IMG/VR virus record: IMGVR_UViG_3300032073_000011
Coordinates: 38,193-102,192 of that record
Length of the DNA stretch: 64,000 bases
Source of the DNA: a virus
Reading direction: 5' to 3' (one strand)
Shown: positions 37,843 to 59,798 of the stretch, piece by piece
Layout: each line of letters starts with the position of its first letter
Position numbering within the stretch: the stretch's first letter is position 1
The notes under the pieces: generated by a model
Seen by the model: the letters and a program-made list of their open reading frames with translations, nothing else
What the model was told of the DNA's origin: nothing
The model's database searches: none
Program-made: the position numbers and the translations under genes

Positions 37843-38598
37843 TTAATCTTCGTCTTCCGCGTTTGGGTCTCCGAAACTTTTTTGGATATCTACGTCACTG
37901 TAGTCTTCTACAGCGTCTTTGGTTAAAACATATTGTTTTTTACCTGTTTTGTCAAACACTTCTTCTTTGTCTGTAAAAAAATCACTAAGTGTCTTATTAT
38001 AAGGGCCACTATCATGTTTTCTTAAACCTAATTTTTCTTCTGGTGTTCTTGGTCTATATTCTTCTAATTTATCTTCTAGACTACTAATTTTAGTAGCTAC
38101 ATCTTCCATAGAGGATAATTGACTCTCTAGGTCTGAAAGTTTTGTCATTAAATCCTCTAGACTTTGTGTGTTTTTAGATAGAATATCGGTTTGGTCAGAT
38201 AGTTCTGTATTTACCTCATCTTGTTTACTAACTAAATCAGTAACATCAAGTTCTGTAGTGTCGTCTTCAGTACCCATATCAGTATCTATATCGGCATCTA
38301 AATCCATTTCATCTTCAACAGCCACACCCTCTTCACCACCTTCATCTTCAACAGGTACTTCTTCAGTATCAACTTCTAATTCTTCATCTTCCAATTCTGG
38401 AACTTCTTGTTCAGCCATTTCCATACCGAATCTTTTCGCTAATCTTTCAACATGACTTCCCATACCAAGATTACTAACACCACCAACATCATTACCAATA
38501 GCAGTAACTGTCTGTTCATTCAAATTATCACTGTTGTGGTTAATTTGGTTGAATCTTTTAAGTTCTTCTAGGATAGATTTTTCTACTTTTTTACCCAT
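37843..38598 (-). CDS. Acidic coiled-coil protein (251 aa), possible scaffold/head-internal protein
   Basis: Very E/D-rich linker, heptad-like C-terminal half, N-terminal ILEELKRFNQI motif. Confidence 0.55.
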   Translation of the reverse strand: MGKKVEKSILEELKRFNQINHNSDNLNEQTVTAIGNDVGGVSNLGMGSHVERLAKRFGMEMAEQEVPELEDEELEVDTEEVPVEDEGGEEGVAVEDEMDLDADIDTDMGTEDDTTELDVTDLVSKQDEVNTELSDQTDILSKNTQSLEDLMTKLSDLESQLSSMEDVATKISSLEDKLEEYRPRTPEEKLGLRKHDSGPYNKTLSDFFTDKEEVFDKTGKKQYVLTKDAVEDYSDVDIQKSFGDPNAEDED

Positions 38599-38886: not shown

Positions 38887-41800
38887 TTATTGTCGTGTTC
38901 TAGGTAAAAATTCTGCAGGGTTTAAATAATGTTCTACTATTTTACCTTCTTGTTTAACACCTCTTTTTATTTCAAAATGTAGGTGTGTACTTTTAGATAA
39001 TCCACTATTACCCATTTTACCAATTACTTTATTTCCAGAACCAACACCTATAAACCCTCTTTCTATTGGGTCGTTTACGTTTACAGTTATACCTTCCCTC
39101 AAAAAAGCGTATCGTGTTAGATAGTAAGCTGTCCCTTCTTCTGGTGGGTCATTATTTAGTATAGTTTTAACCTCAACATGATTACCGTATTTAGCACAAG
39201 ATTCACTTTCTTGTAATGGTTTACAACCATCAACAACTTTAGTTACTACACCATAAACAGCCGGATAAATTTCAATACCACCATTTTCATCATTTGCAAA
39301 ATCTATATTATCTGAAGTAGGACATATATCCACACCTAAATGTCGTTTTTCTGGGTCCTCATTTGGTGTTACTATAAATGTTCCCGCACTTAAGGTAACA
39401 TCAACCCACCTTACATTATCAGTGTCTAATGGTGGTGTTTGGTATGTTACACCAGTAGCTATGTAATTATTTTGTTTAGGGTTTAATTTTTTCTGACTTT
39501 CAGTAGCACTTAATCCATCATAATATAAATCTATAGGTATCTTTTCTAATCTGTCTTCGGCTTTTTCATATAATTTAACATTAACTCTTTGTACTAGGTC
39601 ACTTATAGCTGGTAAAGTTGGTTTTGGTACTCTAACTCCTTCAAATGTTGTTTCTATTGTATTTGGTCTAATTTCGTGTTCAACATTAATAATTAAATAA
39701 GGCCCATTAAACATTGGTAAGTATCTTAGTTGGAAATATTGTGTTGGTTGTATCGTTACGTTACCCACACATGTAACCCTTGCTGTATAGGACCTACTAG
39801 CGTATACATTAAATAAAGAAACCGATGCTGGTGATGTAGAATTTCCACCCCCTGAATCTGCCATACTTTGTAGTATCTTAAAACTCTCTGAGGTATTTTG
39901 AAATTGTGATTGGTCTAGTGTTATTGATTCAAAAATGTTTTGGTTGGGTATACCAAAGTCTACGTTGAACCCCATCACCTTATTTGACTGTTCTTTATTG
40001 CCACATTCTTGTGTTACCAATGGGGAGTTTGGTGAGTTATAATTAAATGAATCATTATTATAACCATTATTAGGTGTTTTAGCGTTTAGTTGTGATGATG
40101 GTTTACCTACGTATTGACATAGGAAAGCCGGTGCTGAATCTATATAATCTACAGTTTTAAATGTACCGAACATTGCATTTCCTTGAGCTTGTGTGTCGGT
40201 ACCTTTTTTTTCCACATTAAAGAAATTTATATAAGAAGGTAGTGGTATAAAATTAAAGTAATTGTTAGCTAATATAATACTTAAGTAACTTGAGACACTC
40301 TGTGTTAATGTTTTAGAGTTAGTGTCGGTAAACGGAGAGTCTAGTTTGAGTATGTCCCATATGTTAATTATTGCTTCGTCACCAATGTCTTGGTTTGCCC
40401 TATCTAAAAATAAAAATTTCTCAAATAACGTTTGGTCTGTAAGGTTAGTCCCAGAAACCCACCTATCATTTATTATTTTAAACTGATTATATAACTCTAA
40501 TTTTAGGTCATCAGACTTAACTTCTGGTCTATCATCTGTAACCACATCTAATGTGGTATCATCAGTTTCTAAATTTTGTTTTATATTTTTTTGTAGTTCG
40601 GTTAATAAAGTTTCAGCGTATAGTTCTTCCGAAGTCTTTAGTGAGTCTATACGAGCCATAAAAGTATCTAAAAATGTACTCGCTGGAGTGGTTCCATTTA
40701 AACTAACATGACTAGCGTATAGTTTAATAAAGGGAGCAAATGATATTATATTATTTGTATTAAATTGCATACCATCTGGAGTGATTTTATTAATACTTTG
40801 GAAAAAATTATACATTGGATTTGAGTCATCAGCATCAATTAACATGCCAAATTGATTTGAACTGTCTGGATAAAACTCCCCAACTTCAAGTCTCATTGTT
40901 TGATGTTCTGGGTTACCTGCAGGAAAAAATCCACCAGCTAGTGGTATCGCTTGTCCACTAGGATAACTACCGTATAGTTCAGTTAAATTATTAAATACCT
41001 CATCTTTGTTATTATTAATATCACGAAGTTGTGTTAGTCTTTGTAATAAAGTTTCATTATTTATAACCAAATCTAAATTAGTAGTACTTCTATGGATATA
41101 TTCTACTTTTTTACTTAAAAACTGAGACATGGAATGGTTAAACTTTAAAAATTGTGCTTCTGCGAGTGATTTAGAGTTAGTCCCCCCACCGGCATTAAGA
41201 CCACCAACAGTAGTTAACCAAGTATCTTCTACCACAACTAATTGTTTAATTAACCCTTTAAGGGAACCACCCAAACTAGTAGAACCTCCTGGTGTGGAAA
41301 AAACTAAAAATTCTCGTTCAAATTCATCTAGTTGTTCTTTATTAAACACACCTCTGAGTACTTCTATACTATCATAGAGTCCTGGATTACTAAAACTCCA
41401 AGATTCTTGTTCATTTTGTTCTGGATTAATTTTTTTAAAGTAGTCTCCAGGTCCAGATTTATACGCTGCTTGGTGTTCGAAATAACCGTAGTGTGAAGCA
41501 CCCCATAATAATCTACATGCTCCATTATGTAACGCAGCGTTACCGTAGGTTGGTGTTTCGTAAGTTGAAGCGTCGGTACCGTCAAGTCCTCCAGAAGAAG
41601 GAAAAAGTATGGTATACTCCGAGGTCTGTGGTGAGTTAGGGGTACTCACACCAAAAACGGGGTCAGCAATATTAGTGGACCGTAAATAAACATTATAAAA
41701 TCTTACATCTACACCATCAAATGAGGTGTAGTTAATATCACTATTAGGTTCTATAGTTAATGGAGCATTTCCCGCAGTGTCTATAAGGTTATTCAATTGT

Positions 41801-44800
41801 TGTCCTGGACCAATATTACTATAACTATCGTTATCACTAGCTATGAATTGGACTGTATCAACTAATGCTGGGTAAACCCCCACTCTCATAGTAGTATTGT
41901 TAACGTTACTTTCTTGACTTACATAGGGGTAGGTGTTTCCATTTTGTAAAAATGTATAGTGATTTAGAGTATTTAAAGCTGTTTCATAAACACTACTTGG
42001 ACCTGTATACCCTAAATAACTAACAAATCCCAAATTACCCCAAATAGAACTTAATGGGTCTACTTGTGTTTGTACTTCTGTTTTGTATCTCCACCAAACT
42101 GAACCAATTCTTAATATTAAAGCTACTGGTAAATTATGAATAGCAGGCATCTGATTAAACATCTGTGATATATAATTACCAAATTTATCATTATCACCAT
42201 CCTTATATAATGCTTTTTCTCTTAGTGTCGGTAGTGGTAATGAATTTAAAAATAAATAAGCAGCTTGTGTATATGGATTTGGGGTTCCTACTTTATCTCT
42301 TTCCACACCACCAATTAATGCGTTTATAAAATAAGGTGTGTTTAACATAGACGTTAACCTTACAGCAGCCATTTCTATATTGGTACCTCCCGTAGGGGGT
42401 ATTGTAGATACTGTTGGGAATCGATGTATTTCACCTTCTGTTATAAATTTATGTTGTATGTAATTTTCATATGTTTCATCTACCGTACCTATGGTGTTAA
42501 GGTTGTACGCTCCAAGTCGTCTATACAACATTTTTTCTGAGTCTTCTTCTATAAAATTTGTCCTACTGTATTTTGCTCTTGTTAAGTACATCGTACTCCA
42601 AGTGTCGGTTAAAACATTTTTTTCATTTATGTCATACTGTACGTTTTTACTTATATTAAAAAAATCATTACTACTAATTGTGTTTCCATTAGCAAAGTTT
42701 CTTCTTACCCAATTACCAAAAATACAAGGAGCTAAGTCATAAGCACTATTACTCTTTCCCTCTAATAATATCTCAGTATTCAATTCAAAATCTTGACTTC
42801 TAACTGAAAATAAAGATTTATTATAATTTAATGTAAAGGTTGGTTTTACTTCATATGGTGTGATAATACCGTACTGTTGATATAGGACAAACCTAAAAGG
42901 GTCAGCATCCTTTAAAATTGTTAACATTTGGGTTAACCCCCCTAAATCTAAAAATACTTGTTTTTGTGTACTATAATTTTTAATTCTTTGGTATAGGTTT
43001 AAAGCGTCGTATTTTGCTAATTCTCTGAGAGCTGGATTAATAAAACTAGATGTACTTAACACACCTGTTTGTCCCACATATCTAGAAAATAAACCACCAT
43101 TTAAAACCGCTCTTTGAGTTCTATCTAATATCTCAAACCATATATCCAAATCTTCTATACTAAAATAAGGGGTAGATGTAGGTGGCCAATCATATACTGT
43201 TATTGGGGTCCAGTCTTTATCTACAGCCTTATTATCAACTGTTGGGTTAAATAAGCTAAACTTATAGTTGGTGGCTTTAGTGTATTCTTCTACGAACTCG
43301 ACCTCGGGCCATATTTTTGGGTTATTAGCTAAAGTATTAGCTATAACATCTGAAGCACCTGGATAAGTTAAAACAGAATTTGTTGTGGTACAGTTACCAC
43401 CTTTTTGTTGTTCCTCAATTTTATAATATTGAGGCCATGGATACACTATTTGGTTAGTTGCGTTGGAGTCATCGGATGAAACTGCTGCTGCCAATCTTTG
43501 TTCGTTTTGTCTCTGAGCAAATGCATCTGTATGTACATCATCTAATAATTTTAAAAAGGTGTCAGCACCAGCTAATATTATCGCAAAAACATTTCTTATC
43601 GTTGGTTTAAACCCTATGGCTTTTTGTAACCTACCGTTAAGTTTTTTACTCAGGTCTTCTGCCATACTTTTTGCCTTACTATCAAACATTCTTTTAGTTT
43701 TTGTCCATATATAAACAAAACTATCCACATCTCCCTCAAACATAAACCAAGGTGCTTGCCCTGCTGGTAGTTGTGTTGTTATACCACCTATCTGGACACT
43801 TCCTTTAATTTGTGAATTTTCAAATATGTCGTAGGTTGGGTCACTGAACCTAGTGGCTACGGAATATTTACCACCTTCCACAGTACTTCTTGCTTTAAAG
43901 GTTGGGTTTTGTTGTAGTATTTTAAAATATTTTTTGACTATCGATTCTAAAGCGTTTTTAGCTTCATTAATTATCTTATCTTGGTTTTCTTTTCTTTTAG
44001 TAGCGTCTGTTTCTGCTGTAGCTGCTGACATACCTTTTAAAGGATATGCCTGAGTAATTACAGTTCTTCCTGTATTTGGTGTTGTTGGGATTTGTTCTCC
44101 TGGTTGTGGTGGGAATGGCGGTTCATTTACAGTAACGTTTCTTCTACCAGCTGGAGAGGTGTCCAAATATTTTCCAACCCACCCTTTCTTACCAATTATA
44201 GCACTTTTAAATTTTTCTAAAGTTTTTTCATACTCTAGTTTATGGGTAGTACTTTCTAAACTAGCTTCACCAAATACTTGAGCCATATCATTATCTATAG
44301 ATTGTATTTTTTCTATTAACTCTACAGTGGTATATTGGTTATTGAATAAGTTGTCACTAATTAAGCCTTTAGTGTAGTACTCTCTATAAACTTCCCCAAG
44401 TACTTGTCTTCCTTTAGTCATTTGAATATTTCCACTTTGTGGGTCTTGTCTTGTAGGGTATAGGTAAGGTGCTGTGACCGCTTCATGCATGTTTATATCC
44501 CTTAACATTGCTATATGATTACCTTTAAAATCACATGTGACTAAGTAATCACCAGATGCTGGGTCAAAACGAGATATAAATTTTTCTAGGGTTAGTTGGT
44601 ATTGGACTGCCTTCCCGTAATATCCTTTAAGTGTTAGAAAAAAGGTTGGGTATGGTAGGTGAAAAAAAGCAGTGTAGGGTGTGTTGACCTTAGCTTGTTC
44701 AAATAATGTTTTCCCCCTAACATCTGTGAAGTTTATAGTTACTTGGGGTATGTAGGATGCGTTAACTTTAATACTAATAGAGGTTATACCAAATCCCTGA

Positions 44801-45180
44801 AAATCATTTTGGTTATTTATACTAGTAGATGTTGTAACACCATCTTTTGTTTTAGTTTTTATTTTTTTATTAACATCTGGATTAGTGAAGGCCTCTGTCC
44901 AATCTGAATCAAATGAACTTTTGCCTTTTGGTTTTAAAAAATTTAGTTCACCATCTGCTATTTCTACCCTAATTTCATCTCCTGCAGCCGCACCAACTAA
45001 TAACTTACTTCTAGGAAATATTTTCGCTGTAAGGTTAGCGTACATCACAAAATCCTCTTGATTAACCAACCTATCTTTTATAACACCATCTGCCCCCACC
45101 ACTTTATTAGGGTCTATTGACACTACGTTACCCCCTATTTGGGTGGTTAGTATATTACCGGAATTTAAATTATCTGCCAT
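38887..45180 (-). CDS. Baseplate hub / tail-associated protein with C-terminal M23 peptidase-like domain (2097 aa)
   Basis: Hub-like FGITSISIK...VTINFTDVRG and YTARVTCVGNVTIQPTQYF...GPYLIINVEHEI segments; C-terminal HLGVD, YGNHV, IGKMGNSG and HLHFE. Confidence 0.75.
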   Translation of the reverse strand: MADNLNSGNILTTQIGGNVVSIDPNKVVGADGVIKDRLVNQEDFVMYANLTAKIFPRSKLLVGAAAGDEIRVEIADGELNFLKPKGKSSFDSDWTEAFTNPDVNKKIKTKTKDGVTTSTSINNQNDFQGFGITSISIKVNASYIPQVTINFTDVRGKTLFEQAKVNTPYTAFFHLPYPTFFLTLKGYYGKAVQYQLTLEKFISRFDPASGDYLVTCDFKGNHIAMLRDINMHEAVTAPYLYPTRQDPQSGNIQMTKGRQVLGEVYREYYTKGLISDNLFNNQYTTVELIEKIQSIDNDMAQVFGEASLESTTHKLEYEKTLEKFKSAIIGKKGWVGKYLDTSPAGRRNVTVNEPPFPPQPGEQIPTTPNTGRTVITQAYPLKGMSAATAETDATKRKENQDKIINEAKNALESIVKKYFKILQQNPTFKARSTVEGGKYSVATRFSDPTYDIFENSQIKGSVQIGGITTQLPAGQAPWFMFEGDVDSFVYIWTKTKRMFDSKAKSMAEDLSKKLNGRLQKAIGFKPTIRNVFAIILAGADTFLKLLDDVHTDAFAQRQNEQRLAAAVSSDDSNATNQIVYPWPQYYKIEEQQKGGNCTTTNSVLTYPGASDVIANTLANNPKIWPEVEFVEEYTKATNYKFSLFNPTVDNKAVDKDWTPITVYDWPPTSTPYFSIEDLDIWFEILDRTQRAVLNGGLFSRYVGQTGVLSTSSFINPALRELAKYDALNLYQRIKNYSTQKQVFLDLGGLTQMLTILKDADPFRFVLYQQYGIITPYEVKPTFTLNYNKSLFSVRSQDFELNTEILLEGKSNSAYDLAPCIFGNWVRRNFANGNTISSNDFFNISKNVQYDINEKNVLTDTWSTMYLTRAKYSRTNFIEEDSEKMLYRRLGAYNLNTIGTVDETYENYIQHKFITEGEIHRFPTVSTIPPTGGTNIEMAAVRLTSMLNTPYFINALIGGVERDKVGTPNPYTQAAYLFLNSLPLPTLREKALYKDGDNDKFGNYISQMFNQMPAIHNLPVALILRIGSVWWRYKTEVQTQVDPLSSIWGNLGFVSYLGYTGPSSVYETALNTLNHYTFLQNGNTYPYVSQESNVNNTTMRVGVYPALVDTVQFIASDNDSYSNIGPGQQLNNLIDTAGNAPLTIEPNSDINYTSFDGVDVRFYNVYLRSTNIADPVFGVSTPNSPQTSEYTILFPSSGGLDGTDASTYETPTYGNAALHNGACRLLWGASHYGYFEHQAAYKSGPGDYFKKINPEQNEQESWSFSNPGLYDSIEVLRGVFNKEQLDEFEREFLVFSTPGGSTSLGGSLKGLIKQLVVVEDTWLTTVGGLNAGGGTNSKSLAEAQFLKFNHSMSQFLSKKVEYIHRSTTNLDLVINNETLLQRLTQLRDINNNKDEVFNNLTELYGSYPSGQAIPLAGGFFPAGNPEHQTMRLEVGEFYPDSSNQFGMLIDADDSNPMYNFFQSINKITPDGMQFNTNNIISFAPFIKLYASHVSLNGTTPASTFLDTFMARIDSLKTSEELYAETLLTELQKNIKQNLETDDTTLDVVTDDRPEVKSDDLKLELYNQFKIINDRWVSGTNLTDQTLFEKFLFLDRANQDIGDEAIINIWDILKLDSPFTDTNSKTLTQSVSSYLSIILANNYFNFIPLPSYINFFNVEKKGTDTQAQGNAMFGTFKTVDYIDSAPAFLCQYVGKPSSQLNAKTPNNGYNNDSFNYNSPNSPLVTQECGNKEQSNKVMGFNVDFGIPNQNIFESITLDQSQFQNTSESFKILQSMADSGGGNSTSPASVSLFNVYASRSYTARVTCVGNVTIQPTQYFQLRYLPMFNGPYLIINVEHEIRPNTIETTFEGVRVPKPTLPAISDLVQRVNVKLYEKAEDRLEKIPIDLYYDGLSATESQKKLNPKQNNYIATGVTYQTPPLDTDNVRWVDVTLSAGTFIVTPNEDPEKRHLGVDICPTSDNIDFANDENGGIEIYPAVYGVVTKVVDGCKPLQESESCAKYGNHVEVKTILNNDPPEEGTAYYLTRYAFLREGITVNVNDPIERGFIGVGSGNKVIGKMGNSGLSKSTHLHFEIKRGVKQEGKIVEHYLNPAEFLPRTRQ

Positions 45181-49748: not shown

Positions 49749-51665
49749 TTATGCCCCTAAGGACATAGCGTCATTTAGTAGTTTACCAGTTTCTAAAGCT
49801 ACACCCCTATCCATTTGTAGTAGTTTTAAAAAGTCTTGCCCATTCATTCTTGCCTCACCATTATTAACATCAATATTACCTTCCAACTTTAAACTAAGTG
49901 GTCTCATAGTTGTTGTGTTGGTTGTGGTATTTGTATTTTCTACTATACTTTTATTTAAAGTTTCTGTTCTACTCGCGATAGACGCATCAAGGTCTTCTCC
50001 TAATTTTACATTTCCAGCTTGTGCTGCTACTAAAATATCTCCTTTATCAAAAGTTGTTATACCTTCTGGTGTGATTATTGCATCATTTGCATGCATTTTT
50101 TGTAATTCTTCCAAAGCTTTCTTAGCTCCATCGGTACCAGCTTTTTCAATCTCAGCAGATATAGAGTCTAGGTCACCTTTTCTTAAAGATTCTAGTTGTT
50201 CATCTGTTAAGCTTGGCATTCCAGAGGCTATTGTTTGTGTTAAAGTTTCTGTTCTTATAGCTTTGTCAGCTCCCATTCCTAACTCGTTTTTTACCATTAA
50301 CCTAATACCTGCATCCATCGCTGCAAGATACTGATTAGCTTTTTCAGCAACGGTAAGTTGTTGTTTATAGACATCAGAATCCGTCATCCCTTCCTTTCTT
50401 AATAATTCCATTTGTTCTTCGGTAACATTAGAAACATCAACCATTTCTTCAATACCTGGAATTTTTACTTGTGCTACCCCACCTTCACCAATTTTAGACA
50501 TAGAAGCTATTAACTCCTTATCGGTTTCTGACATATCACTAAAGTCTCCTATTTGGTTAAATACTTCTGCTCTTCTTGCTGACCTGACTGCGGTATCTGC
50601 TAATTCTTGGTAACTCATACCCATTTGTTCTGCCATAGCTTTTAACTGTCGTCTCTGTTCCGGAGATATAGAGAATTTGTTCTTTTCTTTGTCAAAATAA
50701 ACAGCTGAAGCTGCTGTATCCGCAATAGCCTCTTGTAGACCTTCTAGGTCATTAGTTGCCATGTACATTAATTTAAATGGGTCTGCTAGGTCACCAACCG
50801 CGCCCCCAATTACACTCATTTGTGCCGCAAAATCAATCGCCCCTTCCGGGTCAAAGAATTTATCCGCGAGACTTGTTACCGTACTCATTTCAATACCTAA
50901 TGCCTGACCTCTAGCTACCATTCTAGCTAATCCCTCAACACCTCTTTCAAATCCGTAAGTATTAATTAATTTTAATTCACCACTTATATTACCTAAGAAT
51001 TTTTCCATTACAACACCAAAATCTCTACCTGTTTGTAAGATTTCAGACATAGCATTATCAGTTTCATCTACTTTACCCATTGCTGTATCTAAACTAAATC
51101 CTATAGTATCAAAACTTTCTGCAAATTTTCCAGCATCAAACCCTTCTAATGTTTTGGTTAATAGTGCAGCTCTTTCACTAACTTCTGGTGGGATATATAG
51201 GTTTCTTGAAATTTCTTTGGTCATTTCTTTGAAGACCGTGAATAAATCGTTTACGGTCATACCAAATTTGGATGCTGACATTCCTGCCTCAGTTAGACCA
51301 TCTACTGTATCCATTAACTGTGCGTTGGACATTCCTAGACTTTTGGAGATGTCTACCCTTAGAGTATCTTCTAAAGCTAACATGTCTAATATTGTTTCCA
51401 TATTATCCATATTAGTTACGTTTAAAGTCCTTATATTTTTAAGGACATCAGCCATTTTTTCTAAATCTCCTGTTGATACACTTTCTTTTGGTGTTCTATC
51501 GGTTGCTATTTTACCTAGCTTTTCCCATACGGAACCCTTACTACCTCCACCAACATTACTTTTTGGGGGTGGCCCATAACCAACTGGTACCCAATCACCA
51601 TTTGCATTATAAATGTGGTTTACACCATTAATTGTTTTTTCATCACCTAATTGTGGAGTTGCCAT
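49749..51665 (-). CDS. Tape measure protein (638 aa)
   Basis: Helical A/M/E/K-rich sequence; canonical position after tube and chaperone genes. Confidence 0.75.
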   Translation of the reverse strand: MATPQLGDEKTINGVNHIYNANGDWVPVGYGPPPKSNVGGGSKGSVWEKLGKIATDRTPKESVSTGDLEKMADVLKNIRTLNVTNMDNMETILDMLALEDTLRVDISKSLGMSNAQLMDTVDGLTEAGMSASKFGMTVNDLFTVFKEMTKEISRNLYIPPEVSERAALLTKTLEGFDAGKFAESFDTIGFSLDTAMGKVDETDNAMSEILQTGRDFGVVMEKFLGNISGELKLINTYGFERGVEGLARMVARGQALGIEMSTVTSLADKFFDPEGAIDFAAQMSVIGGAVGDLADPFKLMYMATNDLEGLQEAIADTAASAVYFDKEKNKFSISPEQRRQLKAMAEQMGMSYQELADTAVRSARRAEVFNQIGDFSDMSETDKELIASMSKIGEGGVAQVKIPGIEEMVDVSNVTEEQMELLRKEGMTDSDVYKQQLTVAEKANQYLAAMDAGIRLMVKNELGMGADKAIRTETLTQTIASGMPSLTDEQLESLRKGDLDSISAEIEKAGTDGAKKALEELQKMHANDAIITPEGITTFDKGDILVAAQAGNVKLGEDLDASIASRTETLNKSIVENTNTTTNTTTMRPLSLKLEGNIDVNNGEARMNGQDFLKLLQMDRGVALETGKLLNDAMSLGA

Positions 51666-51692: not shown

Positions 51693-51890
51693 TTAGAATC
51701 TGTTTTTAGCCTTGTTATTTGCTTGTTCAATTGCCTCATTCTTTTTTTGGAATTCCTCTGTTAGGAAATTTACGTAGAATCTACGTTCAAATGTAGGCAT
51801 TTGTAAGAGGTCGGACCACGCGATGTGGAGGTGTTTCATTAGATAATAGAATTCTTGCAATAGGGCATTCCTATATGCCGTAGAAAGGAC
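51693..51890 (-). CDS. Tail assembly chaperone C-terminal extension (T frame), probably expressed by frameshift from 51871-52629
   Basis: Overlapping frame with only a TTG at the overlap; EFYYLMKHLHIAWSDLLQMPTFERRFYV is typical of gpT-like segments. Confidence 0.7.
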   Translation of the reverse strand, partial: VLSTAYRNALLQEFYYLMKHLHIAWSDLLQMPTFERRFYVNFLTEEFQKKNEAIEQANNKAKNRF

Positions 51891-52629
51891 GAAAAAACTC
51901 AACCCCGAATGTGATTCTCGCGTTTATCTCTTCATTCGATGGAGTTAACACGGGGATAGTTAAATCTAGTGAAGGCGAGTTTTCTCTAATTACTTTTCTA
52001 ATGTTTTGAGAATCTCGAATTGGCATTGTTTGTATAAATTGTGCGATAGTCATTGGGTCTCTTACTCCGTCTATTTCTTTAATTAACAATTCTAATTGTT
52101 TGGTCATGTAAGTGTTTACTACCGCTTTTTTATTTTGTTCGTCTAATGCTTTTAATGTTCTTTCGTTTTGTGGGGTTAAGAAAGATAGTTTTACCTTCTT
52201 TTTAGAAATTTCTAAGTAATGGTCAAACTCATTATTATTATCTAACTCCACGCCTACTTCATTAGTTTTTAATATAGATAAATCTATTGTTGTTTCAAAA
52301 GACTCTTTTGTTTTTGGGTCTGTTAAGGTAACTTTATAGTCTGAACCAAAAGCAGTATTTCTTAAAAATACAAGTACAGCTTCTTTATCACATTCTGGCA
52401 TATCCATAATATCTATATCTTTATCTAAAATTTTTCTAGATATTAACATGTTGATTAATTCACCATTAGCTTGTAATGATGGTGTTGCCAATAAATTTTC
52501 GTCTGAAGCATTTAAGTAGGTTACCTTTACAGATTTCTTTTTATTTTTATAAAAAACACCCTGAGAAGGTAAACTTACCATGTCGTAAGGTAAGATTGTT
52601 TCTGGTTGTTGGCCTAATTGTTCTTGCAT
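51871..52629 (-). CDS. Tail assembly chaperone (G; T4 gp26-like N-terminus)
   Basis: VSLPSQG..Y, LNASDENLL, LVFLRNTAFGSDY; ends FFRP; between tube and tape measure genes. Confidence 0.75.
   Translation of the reverse strand: MQEQLGQQPETILPYDMVSLPSQGVFYKNKKKSVKVTYLNASDENLLATPSLQANGELINMLISRKILDKDIDIMDMPECDKEAVLVFLRNTAFGSDYKVTLTDPKTKESFETTIDLSILKTNEVGVELDNNNEFDHYLEISKKKVKLSFLTPQNERTLKALDEQNKKAVVNTYMTKQLELLIKEIDGVRDPMTIAQFIQTMPIRDSQNIRKVIRENSPSLDLTIPVLTPSNEEINARITFGVEFFRPFYGI
51888..51897 (-). other. Putative +1 programmed ribosomal frameshift site UUU_UUU_CGU_C
   Basis: Lies at the overlap of the G and T frames; T is +1 relative to G. Confidence 0.65.
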
Positions 52630-52666: not shown

Positions 52667-52748
52667 CATATATTTAAGTTTTATTAATTTAAATAGGTTG
52701 CGCTATAAGCATCTTAAAATATATAATTAAAGTCAAGTAGTTTGCAAT

Positions 52749-52774
52749 AAAAAAGCCCTAACTAAAGGGCTTTT
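52749..52774 (-). terminator. Intrinsic terminator after the tail tube gene
   Basis: Minus strand AAAAGCCCT-TTAGTT-AGGGCTTTTTT. Confidence 0.85.
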
Positions 52775-52795
52775 ATAAAATCTATTTAGTTTGGT

Positions 52796-53284
52796 TTAGT
52801 AAACTAAGATACATCTATCTGGTCTTAAAGTGGCTGAAATATTTGCAAGACCGTCATCACTATAACTTAAGTCATTAAAGTTAACGTCTGTTAAGAAACA
52901 CCCTTGTAGTATCCATTTTTCTACAACAACACCAGTAGGGTCTAACATTTCTAGGTCGATGTTTTTCTTATAACCCGCAGCGTAACCCATTCTACCAGTT
53001 ACAGATTCTGCATGTGTTCTAACCCACTCCATAAGAGCTTGTGCTGCTGATGGTCCGATTGGGTCTCTAAATGTTACGTTTATTGTGTTCCATACAAATC
53101 TACCCGCTACATAAGTAGAGGTGTTTAAGAACGGTACTTCTACAGAGTTAATTGTAACCTGTGGTCTAGAAGTACTCTCTACATACCATTCATTAATCCC
53201 CAAAGAAGAGTCGAATCGCATGATAAACCTATTCTTTTTCTTTGGCTCATAAGGTATAGGCATTTTCATTAATAAGTCAGCCAT
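52796..53284 (-). CDS. Tail tube protein (T4 gp19-like)
   Basis: YEPKKKNRF, YVAGRFVWNTINVTFRD, YKKNIDLEMLDPTGVVVEKWILQGCF. Confidence 0.9.
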   Translation of the reverse strand: MADLLMKMPIPYEPKKKNRFIMRFDSSLGINEWYVESTSRPQVTINSVEVPFLNTSTYVAGRFVWNTINVTFRDPIGPSAAQALMEWVRTHAESVTGRMGYAAGYKKNIDLEMLDPTGVVVEKWILQGCFLTDVNFNDLSYSDDGLANISATLRPDRCILVY

Positions 53285-55168: not shown

Positions 55169-55567
55169 TTATCTTCTTCTAGACCTTTTTACTTTTCTAG
55201 ATTCTGCCATTCTTTTTCTTGGTTTTCTTGATTCACGAAAATCTGTATCTTTTTCATCACGGTCCTCATGGTCTTCATCATAACCCATATCTTTTTTAAG
55301 GTAACCTAAGTGGTCTTCTATAGCTTTAACATGGTCTTCCATAGACATTTCTTCTTTTCTATCCGAACCTTCATCCTCACCATAGTTATATGTTTCTTCA
55401 CCTTCACTATCTTCTTCTAGATTTTCAGTTTCAAACATTTCTTTATATTTCGCTGTTGGTGTGTTCATTATTCCGAAATTTTGTCCGTTTCCAGCTCCGA
55501 GGTTTTCTTTAACTAATTTTTCTATTAAGTTAACCAATTCCACCTCTTTTAATTTAATCTTTTTCAT
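55169..55567 (-). CDS. Acidic low-complexity protein with basic tail (132 aa), possible head-internal protein
   Basis: N-terminal KKIKLKEVELVNLIEKLVKE; acidic core; R/K-rich C-terminus. Confidence 0.6.
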   Translation of the reverse strand: MKKIKLKEVELVNLIEKLVKENLGAGNGQNFGIMNTPTAKYKEMFETENLEEDSEGEETYNYGEDEGSDRKEEMSMEDHVKAIEDHLGYLKKDMGYDEDHEDRDEKDTDFRESRKPRKRMAESRKVKRSRRR

Positions 55568-56348: not shown

Positions 56349-59300
56349 TTATATATCTTCAAAAGATGCCCCTGTAGGAGTTATTAAGAACTCAACAAAG
56401 ATATATTCTAAAGCTCTGGTAGGTTTAATGTAAATCTTACCATTCATTTCATTTCTATCTATTTCTTCAGGGTCATTAGAAAGTACCACTCTAAAGTCTG
56501 TCAAACCTCTATCTCTTCTTATAGAGTCTAGAATTGGGTTAACTAAGTCTAAGAATTGTTGTCTTACAATATCGTCATTTTGTTCGAATATTAATCTTAC
56601 CGAAACAGCCGAAATTAATTTTCTAGTTTGTAGTAACAATCTTCTAACATTAATTCTATCTAAAGCAGATTCTCTAATCTGTAAAGTTTTATTACCCCAG
56701 ATAATTGGACCTACATCACTGAATGTCGCGATAGGGTTAAGTCTACCTACATATAATGTATCTCTTTCATCTAAAGTCAGTTTCTTTCTCGCTTTAACAG
56801 CGTCCACTAAACCTCTCGTATATCCTGCCGAAGCGAACCATGGGAATGAAATATTATCAGTTAATGCTATATTTCTCATTACCTCTGCTGTTGGTGGGAT
56901 GTAAATTTGTTTATTATTAGCGGTATCTCTTACCTGTATCCAAGGATAATAGGTAGCTGTATAGTTAGAATCAATTAATGAATCTTCTAAATTGTCTACA
57001 GCTTCTTCTGGTGAAACTTGGTTTGTTTTATCTGTTGTGTCTGCTACAAACATATTATAGTCTGGTGTTGTTACCACATATAAAGAGTCAGCTCTTTGTG
57101 TTTCTACCATATCTATAGCTTCATTTACTAAACCTAAGTTATCTACATAATCTAAACCTGGTGTTGTAAACACATTAATATCTACTGATTCTGGGTTATT
57201 GAATGTTTCTATACCTCTTAAGAATGCAAAATAGTCAGTGTTTGCTTCGATGGTACTTAACTTCTTAAATGTACCTAATCCTGTACCTAGTGGGAAATCA
57301 CTACTTGTACAAGCTCCCGCTAAGAAACCACTTAATCCCATTCTATAGTCATCACTATTAGACCTAGTTTTTCTGTAAATGTCCCAACCGTCGAAACCAC
57401 CATGAGGTGCAACTGTAAACTTACGACTTCTAAGTTTTTTATATGTTTCGGTAGATAGTGTAGGTTCGTGGTTAAATTGTCCTGCTCCACAATCAAATAC
57501 TTGTTTATTGTTTAAGGTAGTACCTGTCCAATCTGTATACGCTCCAGTACCTCCTATAACCACAGTAGCTCCAGAATCCATGTGGAATCCTTTAGTTATT
57601 ACATTCCACTCACCACCATCTGCTGGTGTACATAATGTGGACGGTACTTGTTTTCCTTTATAGTTGAAGAAGTCTGGGTCATAAGCTGCACCTGTACTAT
57701 TAGATACACCTAGATAAACTTTACTAACTTTATCACCACCACTAACAGTTTGGTTATTTACCGTACCACTACCGAAAGGTGGGTCAAAAACTGTTTCACC
57801 TGGTGTGTAATATTTTGTTTTATAAACTAATTTAGGGTTTGTAGGACATGTTCCATAACCTCTAAACCTATATCCCTCAAATCCTGCTGGTACTGAATTA
57901 GCAAATGTCCCATCTAATAAACCTTCACCTAAATATAACATAGTATACTTAGATTTTAATTCAAACTCACCTGTAGATGTACCTATTTTTCTACCAACAA
58001 ATGAAACTTTAGTAGGGTCTAAACTACATCTAGTATATTTTTCTAAGACGTTTGGATTTGCATCAGTATCATAGAAATCTCTTACCAAGATATCAAATTC
58101 ACCTCTCTCAAATGACATATTAATTAATGAAATTTTAATTTCTCTGTTTGCTGTTGTACCATCAGATATAGAAATAAATTTAAATAATCTATATACGTCA
58201 GTACCTTGTAATTCTGAAACAATCCATGGTGTTTCAGGTGTTGTCCATTGATGCATGTACCAAGCTATAGTATTTGTGTTTGTTGTATTTCTTGCGGAAG
58301 GTAAGTACTGTAAACAACACTGTAACCCTCTTACTTTTCCTTTTTTCCAAGCATCTGTTAACAAAGCTGGATAAGTTTCTTCTACAAATAAAGGAACCTC
58401 CTCTTTCTTTTTATCAAAAGGACTTCTACCAAATACTCTAGAAACGTAGTCTTGTGAAGTATTACTCATAGAAGTTTTAAATGTGTAAGCTGTACCATTA
58501 ACAGTTCCAGCACTTATACCAAACGAAGCGAATGGATTTTCCATAACTTTATAATAATCTCCAGTACACTGCATATTAACAGTATTCGCACTAATAGAAT
58601 AAACCGGTCCACCCGAAGCCTTATCACTTAATCCTCTAGACCTTAAAGTTAATACTACCATACCATCATATTCAGTCTCAGCTGATAAATTTGTATAAGT
58701 AACGTAGTCCATTACTACATTACCAGAATAAACTACTGTACCAGCACTTGTTGTTCCTGTTGCTGCCGAATAATAACCAGCATATCCTACAGGAGTTCCA
58801 GCTGCAGAGAAAGATATATCTGATGGATTACCACTAATATATAGTTGGTACGAAACCCCACTATACGTAGAACCTGTACAACATGTTGTACTATTGTCGT
58901 TATCAAATAAAGCGTAATACCAAGAATCGTTTTTATATGAAGTCCAGTCAGTACACTCACTTCCTAATATATTAGTTACTGTTAAAGCTGAAGTTGCAGC
59001 TGTTAATGTATCTACTGTATCAGCAGTAGCAGCATTAGTTGTTGCACTAGGTATACAACCATATTGGTAGACTGTTGGACAAGGCCAAGCAGTCGCTGCT
59101 GAAGCTGGGGTTTGTGAACCACCAGTATAACATAAAGTATTAGATGATGTTTTAAGACTTAGAGTCGCAGAAAAGAAATCAAGGAATGATTGTTTTAACG
59201 TTGGTAGTGTAGTTCCGTTCGTTAATGTTACTACTTCACCCAAATCAGTGTCTGTGTCGGATTTTCTAAAGTGATTTAATACCACACCTGGAATTTGTGT

Positions 59301-59798
59301 AAAGAAGTCAGCATTTAAGGCATCATTTATACTTGCACTTTCACCCACAGTAGTATTAGTACCAGTTAGTGGGATGAAGAAAGGCATTATTGTTTGGGTA
59401 ATAGCAGATACAACGCTACTACCAGAATCAGCCCTAAAACTCTTAGGGTCTAATTCCCCCAAAGTTAATACACTAAATGATGGTCCCGCATCATAACCAC
59501 TAAGACCTAATACTCTAGTCACAAATAATTGATTTGATTGACTTAAGTAAGACTTAGCTATATATCCTAACTCATATTTAGGAATCTGTGAATCCACGTA
59601 TGTTGTTGGTGATGTACCACCAAATCTTGTTGTGAAGTCATCATATGATTGTATAAAAATAGGTTCAAAAGCTGGTCCCTTTAGAGTTTCACCAACCACA
59701 CCTAATGTTGTAACACCTACACTTTGTGCTACAAATGTTAAATCTTTCTCAGAAGTATATACCCCTGGAGAAACAAATACCTTATTACCGTCTGCCAT
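56349..59798 (-). CDS. Tail sheath protein, enlarged (1149 aa)
   Basis: FVSPGVYTSEKD, GETLKGPAFEP, YYPW, PWFASAGYTRG, NPIATF...IWGNKTLQ...LDRINVRRLL, IKPTRALEYIFVEF. Confidence 0.95.
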   Translation of the reverse strand: MADGNKVFVSPGVYTSEKDLTFVAQSVGVTTLGVVGETLKGPAFEPIFIQSYDDFTTRFGGTSPTTYVDSQIPKYELGYIAKSYLSQSNQLFVTRVLGLSGYDAGPSFSVLTLGELDPKSFRADSGSSVVSAITQTIMPFFIPLTGTNTTVGESASINDALNADFFTQIPGVVLNHFRKSDTDTDLGEVVTLTNGTTLPTLKQSFLDFFSATLSLKTSSNTLCYTGGSQTPASAATAWPCPTVYQYGCIPSATTNAATADTVDTLTAATSALTVTNILGSECTDWTSYKNDSWYYALFDNDNSTTCCTGSTYSGVSYQLYISGNPSDISFSAAGTPVGYAGYYSAATGTTSAGTVVYSGNVVMDYVTYTNLSAETEYDGMVVLTLRSRGLSDKASGGPVYSISANTVNMQCTGDYYKVMENPFASFGISAGTVNGTAYTFKTSMSNTSQDYVSRVFGRSPFDKKKEEVPLFVEETYPALLTDAWKKGKVRGLQCCLQYLPSARNTTNTNTIAWYMHQWTTPETPWIVSELQGTDVYRLFKFISISDGTTANREIKISLINMSFERGEFDILVRDFYDTDANPNVLEKYTRCSLDPTKVSFVGRKIGTSTGEFELKSKYTMLYLGEGLLDGTFANSVPAGFEGYRFRGYGTCPTNPKLVYKTKYYTPGETVFDPPFGSGTVNNQTVSGGDKVSKVYLGVSNSTGAAYDPDFFNYKGKQVPSTLCTPADGGEWNVITKGFHMDSGATVVIGGTGAYTDWTGTTLNNKQVFDCGAGQFNHEPTLSTETYKKLRSRKFTVAPHGGFDGWDIYRKTRSNSDDYRMGLSGFLAGACTSSDFPLGTGLGTFKKLSTIEANTDYFAFLRGIETFNNPESVDINVFTTPGLDYVDNLGLVNEAIDMVETQRADSLYVVTTPDYNMFVADTTDKTNQVSPEEAVDNLEDSLIDSNYTATYYPWIQVRDTANNKQIYIPPTAEVMRNIALTDNISFPWFASAGYTRGLVDAVKARKKLTLDERDTLYVGRLNPIATFSDVGPIIWGNKTLQIRESALDRINVRRLLLQTRKLISAVSVRLIFEQNDDIVRQQFLDLVNPILDSIRRDRGLTDFRVVLSNDPEEIDRNEMNGKIYIKPTRALEYIFVEFLITPTGASFEDI

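Follow-up and report, generated by a model that had tools for sequence, protein, structure and literature searches.

The 64,000-nucleotide stretch of DNA analysed here (the window; positions 38,193 to 102,192 of IMG/VR record IMGVR_UViG_3300032073_000011) comes from an uncultured marine giant phage. The record is 102 kb long, has a G+C content of 33–34% and is rated 32% complete by CheckV, which puts the whole phage genome at about 300 kb. Nearly all genes of the window are carried on the minus strand, where a tail sheath gene (1149 aa) is followed by a tail tube gene (162 aa) and then by the subject of this study, an open reading frame (ORF) of 252 aa encoding a putative tail chaperone. This ORF, which we call G (51871–52629, minus strand, 0 frame), matches PF12322 and phrog_150 and has the form of a gp26-like hub-assembly chaperone. 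Its stop codon lies six codons past the sequence GAG TTT TTT CGT C, and a second coding segment of 65 codons, T (51696–51890, minus strand; VLSTAYRN...NRF), is open in the +1 frame up to a TAA at 51693–51695. The original prediction held that G and T form a G/GT-like pair joined by a +1 frameshift at UUU_CGU_C. Re-reading the minus strand returned the same 0 frame (GTT GAG TTT TTT CGT CCT TTC TAC GGC ATA TAG) and the same +1 frame (TTG AGT TTT TTC GTC CTT, open to the TAA), and reading TTTC as one step reproduced exactly the predicted 311-aa fusion (246 + 65 aa) with the junction VEFF-VLSTAYRN.

The putative shift site TTT TTT CGT C occupies positions 51888–51897 of the minus strand, with the E-site UUU at 51897–51895, the P-site UUU at 51894–51892, the A-site CGU at 51891–51889 and a 3' C at 51888. 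Between 51871 and 51890 the minus strand is dual-coding, specifying RPFYGI-stop in the 0 frame and VLSTAYR in the +1 frame, and the nucleotides of this overlap are almost invariant in the clade to which the window belongs. No ATG is present at the overlap, as had been stated; the sole possible independent start for T is a +1-frame TTG (51900–51902, minus strand), which is not conserved, relatives reading TAG or TGG instead.

How the site and the +1 frame are conserved

A homologue search found about 3000 proteins, and among those listed nearly all were about 250 aa long. In an alignment of 20 homologues, the C-terminus GVEFFRPFYG was invariant down to 52% identity, which excludes a sequencing error in this contig. 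We then considered the nucleotide level, using 80 fetched IMG/VR loci, 78 of which contained the motif. GAR TTT TTT CGY CCY TTC TAY GG was kept in 78/78 motif-bearing loci, down to 48% protein identity. Conservation of TTT TTT CGN in homologues, a check of the original prediction, was thus borne out in a stricter form, with TTT TTT CGY CCY invariant in 60/60 distinct IMG/VR relatives and accompanied by an open, protein-conserved +1 ORF. This ORF is open for 46–65 codons in the 60 distinct relatives and for 49–68 codons from the site in the 78 loci. The P-site Phe codon is TTT in 60/60 sequences of the clade; at other conserved Phe positions, TTC is used in 2–13 of the 60.

The peptide encoded by T is itself conserved and starts directly at the shift site. 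It follows the pattern LSTxY[RK]...MPxxxR, in which the Pro and Arg of MP...R are invariant in 30 sequences across clades. Past the G stop, the variable alignment columns number 28, 14 and 47 at T-frame codon positions 1, 2 and 3, respectively, as is typical of a sequence that codes in the T frame. Moreover, in about 20 loci a +1-frame TAG immediately precedes AGT TTT TTC, so that the shift must occur at or after the U run.

Variation of the site in sister clades

A sister clade of 87 distinct sequences, formed by relatives of the Microcystis phage Mel-JY01, shows this layout at TTT TTT TGG CCT, with T again in the +1 frame. Site variants of this clade include TTC_TTT_TGG (9 distinct) and CTT_TTT_TGG (3), and also TTT_TAC and TTT_TTC. 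Mel-JY01 itself, a cultured phage (PP395634; locus L082, 5893–6973), has the site AAC TTT TTT TGG CCT AAG TAA with the T peptide in the +1 frame, and in its GenBank record the chaperone is split into two 'hypothetical proteins' that overlap, with a TTG as the start of the second. Another site, AAC_TTT_CTA, which lacks a U run, is found in LR756508, an uncultured phage of 484 kb, again with T in the +1 frame. Over all 133 distinct sites, the P-site TTT is followed by C or T without exception (the P-site Phe is TTT in 87/87 UGG-clade sequences), and the 0-frame stop lies 3–6 codons past the P-site codon. All sites have just one element in common, a P-site UUU with U or C as the next base; this is precisely what tRNA-Phe requires for re-pairing at +1. 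Judged by their sequences, the TTC_TTT_TGG and AAC_TTT_CTA sites leave a +1 slip as the sole option, as TTC_TTT_T and AAC_TTT_C permit neither −2 re-pairing nor polymerase slippage.

One member of the same family departs from this scheme. LR756511, an uncultured phage of 595 kb, follows the same two-product logic, and its U-rich run falls at the corresponding protein position (GFF compared to EFF). In this phage, however, the run forms a classical −1 heptamer, GGT TTT TTC, read T_TTT_TTC with T in the −1 frame, in contrast to the register TTT_TTT_C of the window with T in +1. With a predicted −1 shift in LR756511, a predicted +1 shift at the present locus and two separate genes in T4, the family shows three solutions to one need.

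Codons, tRNAs and RNA structure at the site

The genes of the window had been said to favour AGA for arginine, and the codon counts agree: the 20,281 codons of the window include 651 for Arg, of which 497 are AGA, 30 CGT and none CGC, a preference far stronger than chance would give. The A-site CGT is accordingly a rare codon, making up 1.5 per 1000 of all codons and 4.6% of those for Arg. The base following the A-site codon is C in 133/133 distinct sites, so that the first +1-frame codon is always GNC (GTC, GCC or GGC), and these three are among the rarest codons of the genome at 2–3 per 1000. The same invariant C opens an invariant 0-frame Pro codon, and constraints on context and on protein are therefore inseparable. 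A C after the A-site codon is likewise present in the prfB site, CUU_UGA_C; for the PA-X site, the 3' C (UUU_CGU_C) is taken from the original prediction and not from the review cited next. Sense-codon sites listed there are CUU_AGG_C of Ty1 and UCC_UUU_CGU of PA-X (PMC5009743).

We found no conserved RNA structure around the site. The single-sequence fold was no better than shuffles (z −0.21), and in RNAalifold the consensus of 23 diverse sites had an energy of −0.35 kcal/mol and showed no covariation. A 5-bp hairpin, GGCAT..ATGCC, located 11 nt past the site, occurs in the window's subclade only and was judged to be a by-product of dual coding. A Shine-Dalgarno-like GGGG within GGG GTT was likewise set aside, as it falls on a Gly-Val pair that varies in relatives (GGT, GGA) and is too distant from the P site. 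Avoidance of in-frame TTT_CGN in the window was not detected either, with 2 occurrences observed compared to about 2 expected.

As to the tRNA supply, no tRNA gene is present in the window or its 102-kb record. Two related records contain 28 tRNA genes, which without exception have ordinary three-base anticodons, and no special or quadruplet-decoding tRNA was found among them. One of these relatives, of 251 kb, carries 23 tRNA genes including Arg(ACG), Phe(GAA) and Trp(CCA), none with an unusual anticodon loop. Separately, we observed in this 251-kb relative (record L079; locus L211, 1501–1591) an isolated and unusually long tRNA-Arg(CCG) of 91 nt, its other tRNA genes being mostly clustered.

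Relationship to the T4 chaperones gp26 and gp51

Profile searches place the gene in the T4 gp26/gp51 family of hub-assembly chaperones. G matches PF12322 (T4_baseplate) at 1.2e-8, with 35.4 bits against a curated cut-off of 24.5, and phrog_150 ('baseplate hub') at 2.8e-10 with 41 bits, covering positions 12–233 of 282. The G-T fusion matches phrog_150 better (1.2e-12, 49 bits) and further, over positions 12–280. Both profiles are also matched by T4 gp26 and gp51, and on phrog_150 gp26 spans positions 14–235, gp51 positions 13–280. The two T4 proteins (208 and 249 aa, respectively) are paralogues (E 2e-6) sharing an N-terminal part, and the C-terminus of gp26, ...KEFFEL, coincides with the EFF position of the shift site. 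From the profile coverage and the end of gp26 at EFF, the short product should correspond to gp26 and the long product to gp51. T alone matches phrog_634 ('baseplate hub assembly catalyst') at 3.6e-4, a profile matched by gp51 at 1.2e-23, and the M-x-P-x-E-R motif region at the C-terminus of gp51 appears to align with T. Pairwise BLAST of the fusion against gp26 and gp51 was non-significant, as was an hhalign comparison of the T profile with gp26.

Leiman et al. 2010 (PMC3004832, Table 2) name both T4 proteins as chaperones of hub assembly, and the T4 roles are taken from there; true counterparts would be needed for hub assembly, and their long form would be absent from the virion. Besides the common family, the shared N-terminal part and the matching ends of G with gp26 and of G-T with gp51, there are clear differences. 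T4 uses two divergently transcribed genes and no frameshift, its proteins have an identity to the window protein below the reach of pairwise BLAST, and the T4 gene adjoins genes 25 and 27, whereas the window gene comes after the tube gene.

Predicted structure of the fusion protein

We built a structural model of the fusion from an alignment containing both G and T rows. The model forms one confident unit (pLDDT 92.8, pTM 0.85), in which T contributes three helices (residues 250–310) with pLDDT values of about 90 or more. Searched against BFVD, it retrieved baseplate hub and hub assembly proteins of many myoviruses, down to E 3.9e-26. Against the PDB, the fusion sequence gave no match and Foldseek returned nothing below E 0.18. 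We also folded the core domain (residues 125–240) alone (pLDDT 78.7) and compared it with 48,161 chains using a structure aligner. Only three chains reached Z ≥ 5, namely the uncharacterised 3fgx (Z 5.8, 90 residues aligned), YqbN 3klu (Z 5.8, 84 aligned) and the HK97 tail assembly chaperone 2ob9 (Z 5.3, 87 aligned). Ranks 4 and 5 were taken by a protein of a PICI-like element (Z 4.6) and a protein of phage YuA (Z 3.9), followed by Z scores of 3.4 or less from rank 6 down. The same three chains also led a search with the whole model, over residues 128–226. With fair but not high confidence, the modelled core domain thus appears to share the tail assembly chaperone fold, and the coherence of the top matches supports the label 'tail chaperone' of the original prediction at the fold level, the label now being sharpened to the T4 gp26/gp51 family with G resembling gp26 and G-T resembling gp51.

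Weighing a ribosomal +1 shift against other explanations

The predicted G/GT-like pair is supported by conservation, in about 60 distinct sequences, of the site, of its rare A-site codon and of the +1 ORF. We favour, at a probability of roughly 0.72, a two-form chaperone consisting of G and of G-T made via a +1 slip at UUU_CGU_C; that the shift in the window's clade is of the ribosomal +1 kind appears likely. According to this model, most ribosomes would keep to the 0 frame and terminate at 252 aa, yielding G with the extent of gp26. Some would pause with peptidyl-tRNA-Phe on the second UUU and the rare CGU in the A site; tRNA-Phe would then re-pair one base forward on UUC, and decoding would restart at GUC. 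The shifted ribosomes would append the helical T domain of 65 residues, and the resulting G-T of 311 aa would have the extent of gp51. By analogy with lambda G/GT and PA-X, the efficiency of the shift is probably low. By the same kind of analogy, recruitment of the tube would fall to the T domain, and binding of the tape measure or hub to the part shared by G and G-T.

Several observations weigh against this reading. The full U6 run is kept in every sequence of the clade, and the E-site codon is TTT in 60/60, compared to about 13% TTC at other Phe positions, so that a −2 slip or an E-site effect fits these data as well as +1. The tRNA-Arg(ACG) encoded by the 251-kb relative reads the A-site CGU, which would make this codon less 'hungry' than its rarity suggests. 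One other in-frame TTT_CGT occurs in the window (GAT TTT CGT GAA, codon 110 of 55169–55567, minus strand) with no evident second product, which makes the motif alone weak. The hhalign comparison of the T profile with T4 gp51 was non-significant (E 0.2), yet it aligned at the expected place (gp51 residues 223–244); the link between the T peptide and gp51 consequently rests on the PHROG profiles. Finally, the structural Z scores are moderate.

The U run bears most directly on a −2 slip, a caveat of the original prediction that stands. In this scenario peptidyl-tRNA-Phe would move back two bases on U6, and UUC and GUC would be read next, yielding a G-T with one extra Phe (EFFFVL). The predicted tryptic junction peptides of the two products are ITFGVEFFVLSTAYR for +1 and ITFGVEFFFVLSTAYR for −2. 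Apart from the invariant U6 and the E-site TTT in 60/60, set against TTC in 2–13/60 elsewhere, a −2 slip has a precedent in the tail chaperone gene of phage Mu (Atkins et al. 2016, PMC5009743), and a slow CGU codon would favour −2 as well. Even so, we consider a −2 slip unlikely. Re-pairing at −2 would produce mismatches at the nine distinct TTC_TTT_TGG sites of the sister clade and at AAC_TTT_CTA, and the UGG clade uses TTC in the E site at the background rate (13/84). In addition, the +1 move from UUU to UUC betters the wobble pair, whereas a −2 move gains nothing.

Transcriptional slippage is quite improbable. It would require the polymerase to drop one U or add two on T6, whereby some mRNAs would encode G-T in-frame. 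The homopolymer (T6, and T7 in the UGG clade) and an uncharacterised polymerase, of phage or host, speak for it; six Ts are, however, short for productive slippage, as is established and reviewed in PMC5009743, and the same two-frame layout is found in relatives whose run is reduced to T4 (TTC TTT T) or T3 (AAC TTT C). Slippage also leaves the conserved rare A-site codon unexplained, and no second ORF accompanies the eight further TTT TTT C runs that lie in frame in the window.

Less probable still are two separate genes, with T beginning at the overlapping TTG (51902) and no frameshift. The +1-frame TTG is indeed present three codons ahead of the site, and the Mel-JY01 record treats T in just this way. 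Against this, no ATG, GTG or TTG lies between the upstream +1 stop and the site in 40 of the 133 distinct sites, and in 28 sites the +1 frame is open for just two codons ahead of it. Furthermore, the conserved T peptide starts right at the site, members of phrog_150 including T4 gp51 hold both parts in one chain, and the fusion model is a single confident fold. It is hardly conceivable that the true gene is a single 311-aa ORF, disrupted by an assembly or homopolymer error or by gene decay, even with the frame break sitting at a homopolymer run: the same break recurs in the Mel-JY01 isolate genome as well as in well over 100 independent assemblies that derive from many samples, homologues are consistently about 250 aa long, and both frames are under purifying selection.

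Genomic neighbourhood

The original prediction had placed the gene between the tail tube and tape measure genes. The first half of this statement was borne out, the 162-aa tube gene directly upstream (52796–53284, minus strand) matching phrog_4542 at 1e-32 and, weakly, PF06841 (gp19). For the second half, the candidate is the 638-aa gene downstream (49749–51665, minus strand). Its product has no Pfam or PHROG family match and no similarity to T4 gp29; the Atlas tape-measure row reached 0.89, which is under Atlas's own trust level, leaving the tape measure assignment a weak lead. Four genes downstream of the chaperone lies a gene for a 2097-aa protein (38887–45180) with a weak C-terminal Peptidase_M23 match (residues 1959–2074) below the Pfam cut-off, a candidate tape measure or tail-associated lysin. 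Upstream, the 1149-aa tail sheath (56349–59798) matches sheath families at residues 858–1146 only, its N-terminal ~850 residues having no family match. Between the tube and chaperone genes, an inverted repeat, AAAGCCCT..AGGGCTTT, occupies 52745–52775, bordered on both strands by runs of A and T. Its form suggests a bidirectional terminator or attenuator behind a highly expressed tube gene; a simple terminator scan did not flag it.

Discussion

A frameshift in the tail assembly chaperone gene was reportedly described as a conserved feature of long-tailed phages by Xu, Hendrix and Duda in 2004. The present locus invites comparison with lambda gpG/gpGT, where two products likewise have a common N-terminus and the shift occurs a few codons ahead of the stop of the short ORF, features predicted at our locus from the sequence. 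The gene also directly follows the tail tube gene, as in lambda-type systems, and the best structural matches of its core domain include the HK97 (2ob9) and YqbN (3klu) proteins. On the other hand, the window protein shares no sequence similarity with the lambda-type families, has an extra N-terminal domain and is about twice as long as lambda gpG, which has about 140 aa. The lambda shift is −1 as opposed to the probable +1 here, and lambda-type systems have the tape measure gene downstream, whereas the 638-aa gene of the window is only a weak lead for one.

With respect to the site itself, the closest parallels are PA-X and Ty1. In each case the P-site codon can re-pair at +1 (UUU to UUC at the present site), the A site holds an Arg codon that is rare by codon usage, a C follows, and there is no evident RNA structure. 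PA-X and Ty1 belong to eukaryotic translation, while the window system is bacterial; compared to PA-X, moreover, the window site follows a second UUU, and the sister clade has UGG in place of CGU. The background given in the original prediction, comprising the −1 shifts of tail chaperone genes, the −2 shift of Mu and the PA-X motif UUU_CGU, was confirmed in Atkins et al. 2016 (PMC5009743), where the PA-X shift is credited to Firth et al. 2012.

For tail chaperone genes, a +1 shift is not new in kind. Such genes use −1, −2 (Mu) or +1 (HSTV-2) shifts (Atkins et al. 2016, PMC5009743), and the SEA-PHAGES annotations used to train PRFect include 350 forward shifts among 2718 positive cases (PMC10885494). 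G-T frameshifting is described as conserved in long-tailed phages 'except T4' (PMC5009743). A full-text literature search, which covered few subscription journals, found no published frameshift in gp26/gp51-type genes. What appears to be new, on the strength of the sequence comparisons, is a +1 shift in the T4-type gp26/gp51 family and the use of a PA-X/Ty1-type sense-codon site in a bacterial system.

A broader scenario, which we regard as improbable, is that a single ancient chaperone gene repeatedly changed its recoding, using −1 at U_UUU_UUC in some clades, +1 at UUU_(C/U)GN_C at the present locus and two genes in T4, with the +1 shift being tuned by the viral tRNA supply. In such a scenario, the first +1 codon would be a rare GNC, and phage tRNAs, such as Arg(ACG) and Trp(CCA) of the 251-kb relative, would alter the waiting time at the A site during infection. 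It would then be the phage itself that controls the ratio of short to long form in the +1 clades.

For recoding research, the locus would represent a natural and widely conserved bacterial +1 site at a sense codon, which operates with no stop codon, Shine-Dalgarno element or RNA structure, and its hundreds of natural A-site variants (CGU, CGC, UGG, UAC, CUA) provide a ready mutational series. The finding is also relevant to annotation, as gene callers and GenBank records split the gene into two 'hypothetical proteins', Mel-JY01 being an example. For the family as a whole, it would mean that T4-type chaperones use the same two-product logic as G/GT. T4 genes 26 and 51 accordingly look like a duplicated, unshifted version of this arrangement, which would offer a testable role for two essential T4 proteins whose function has long been unclear.

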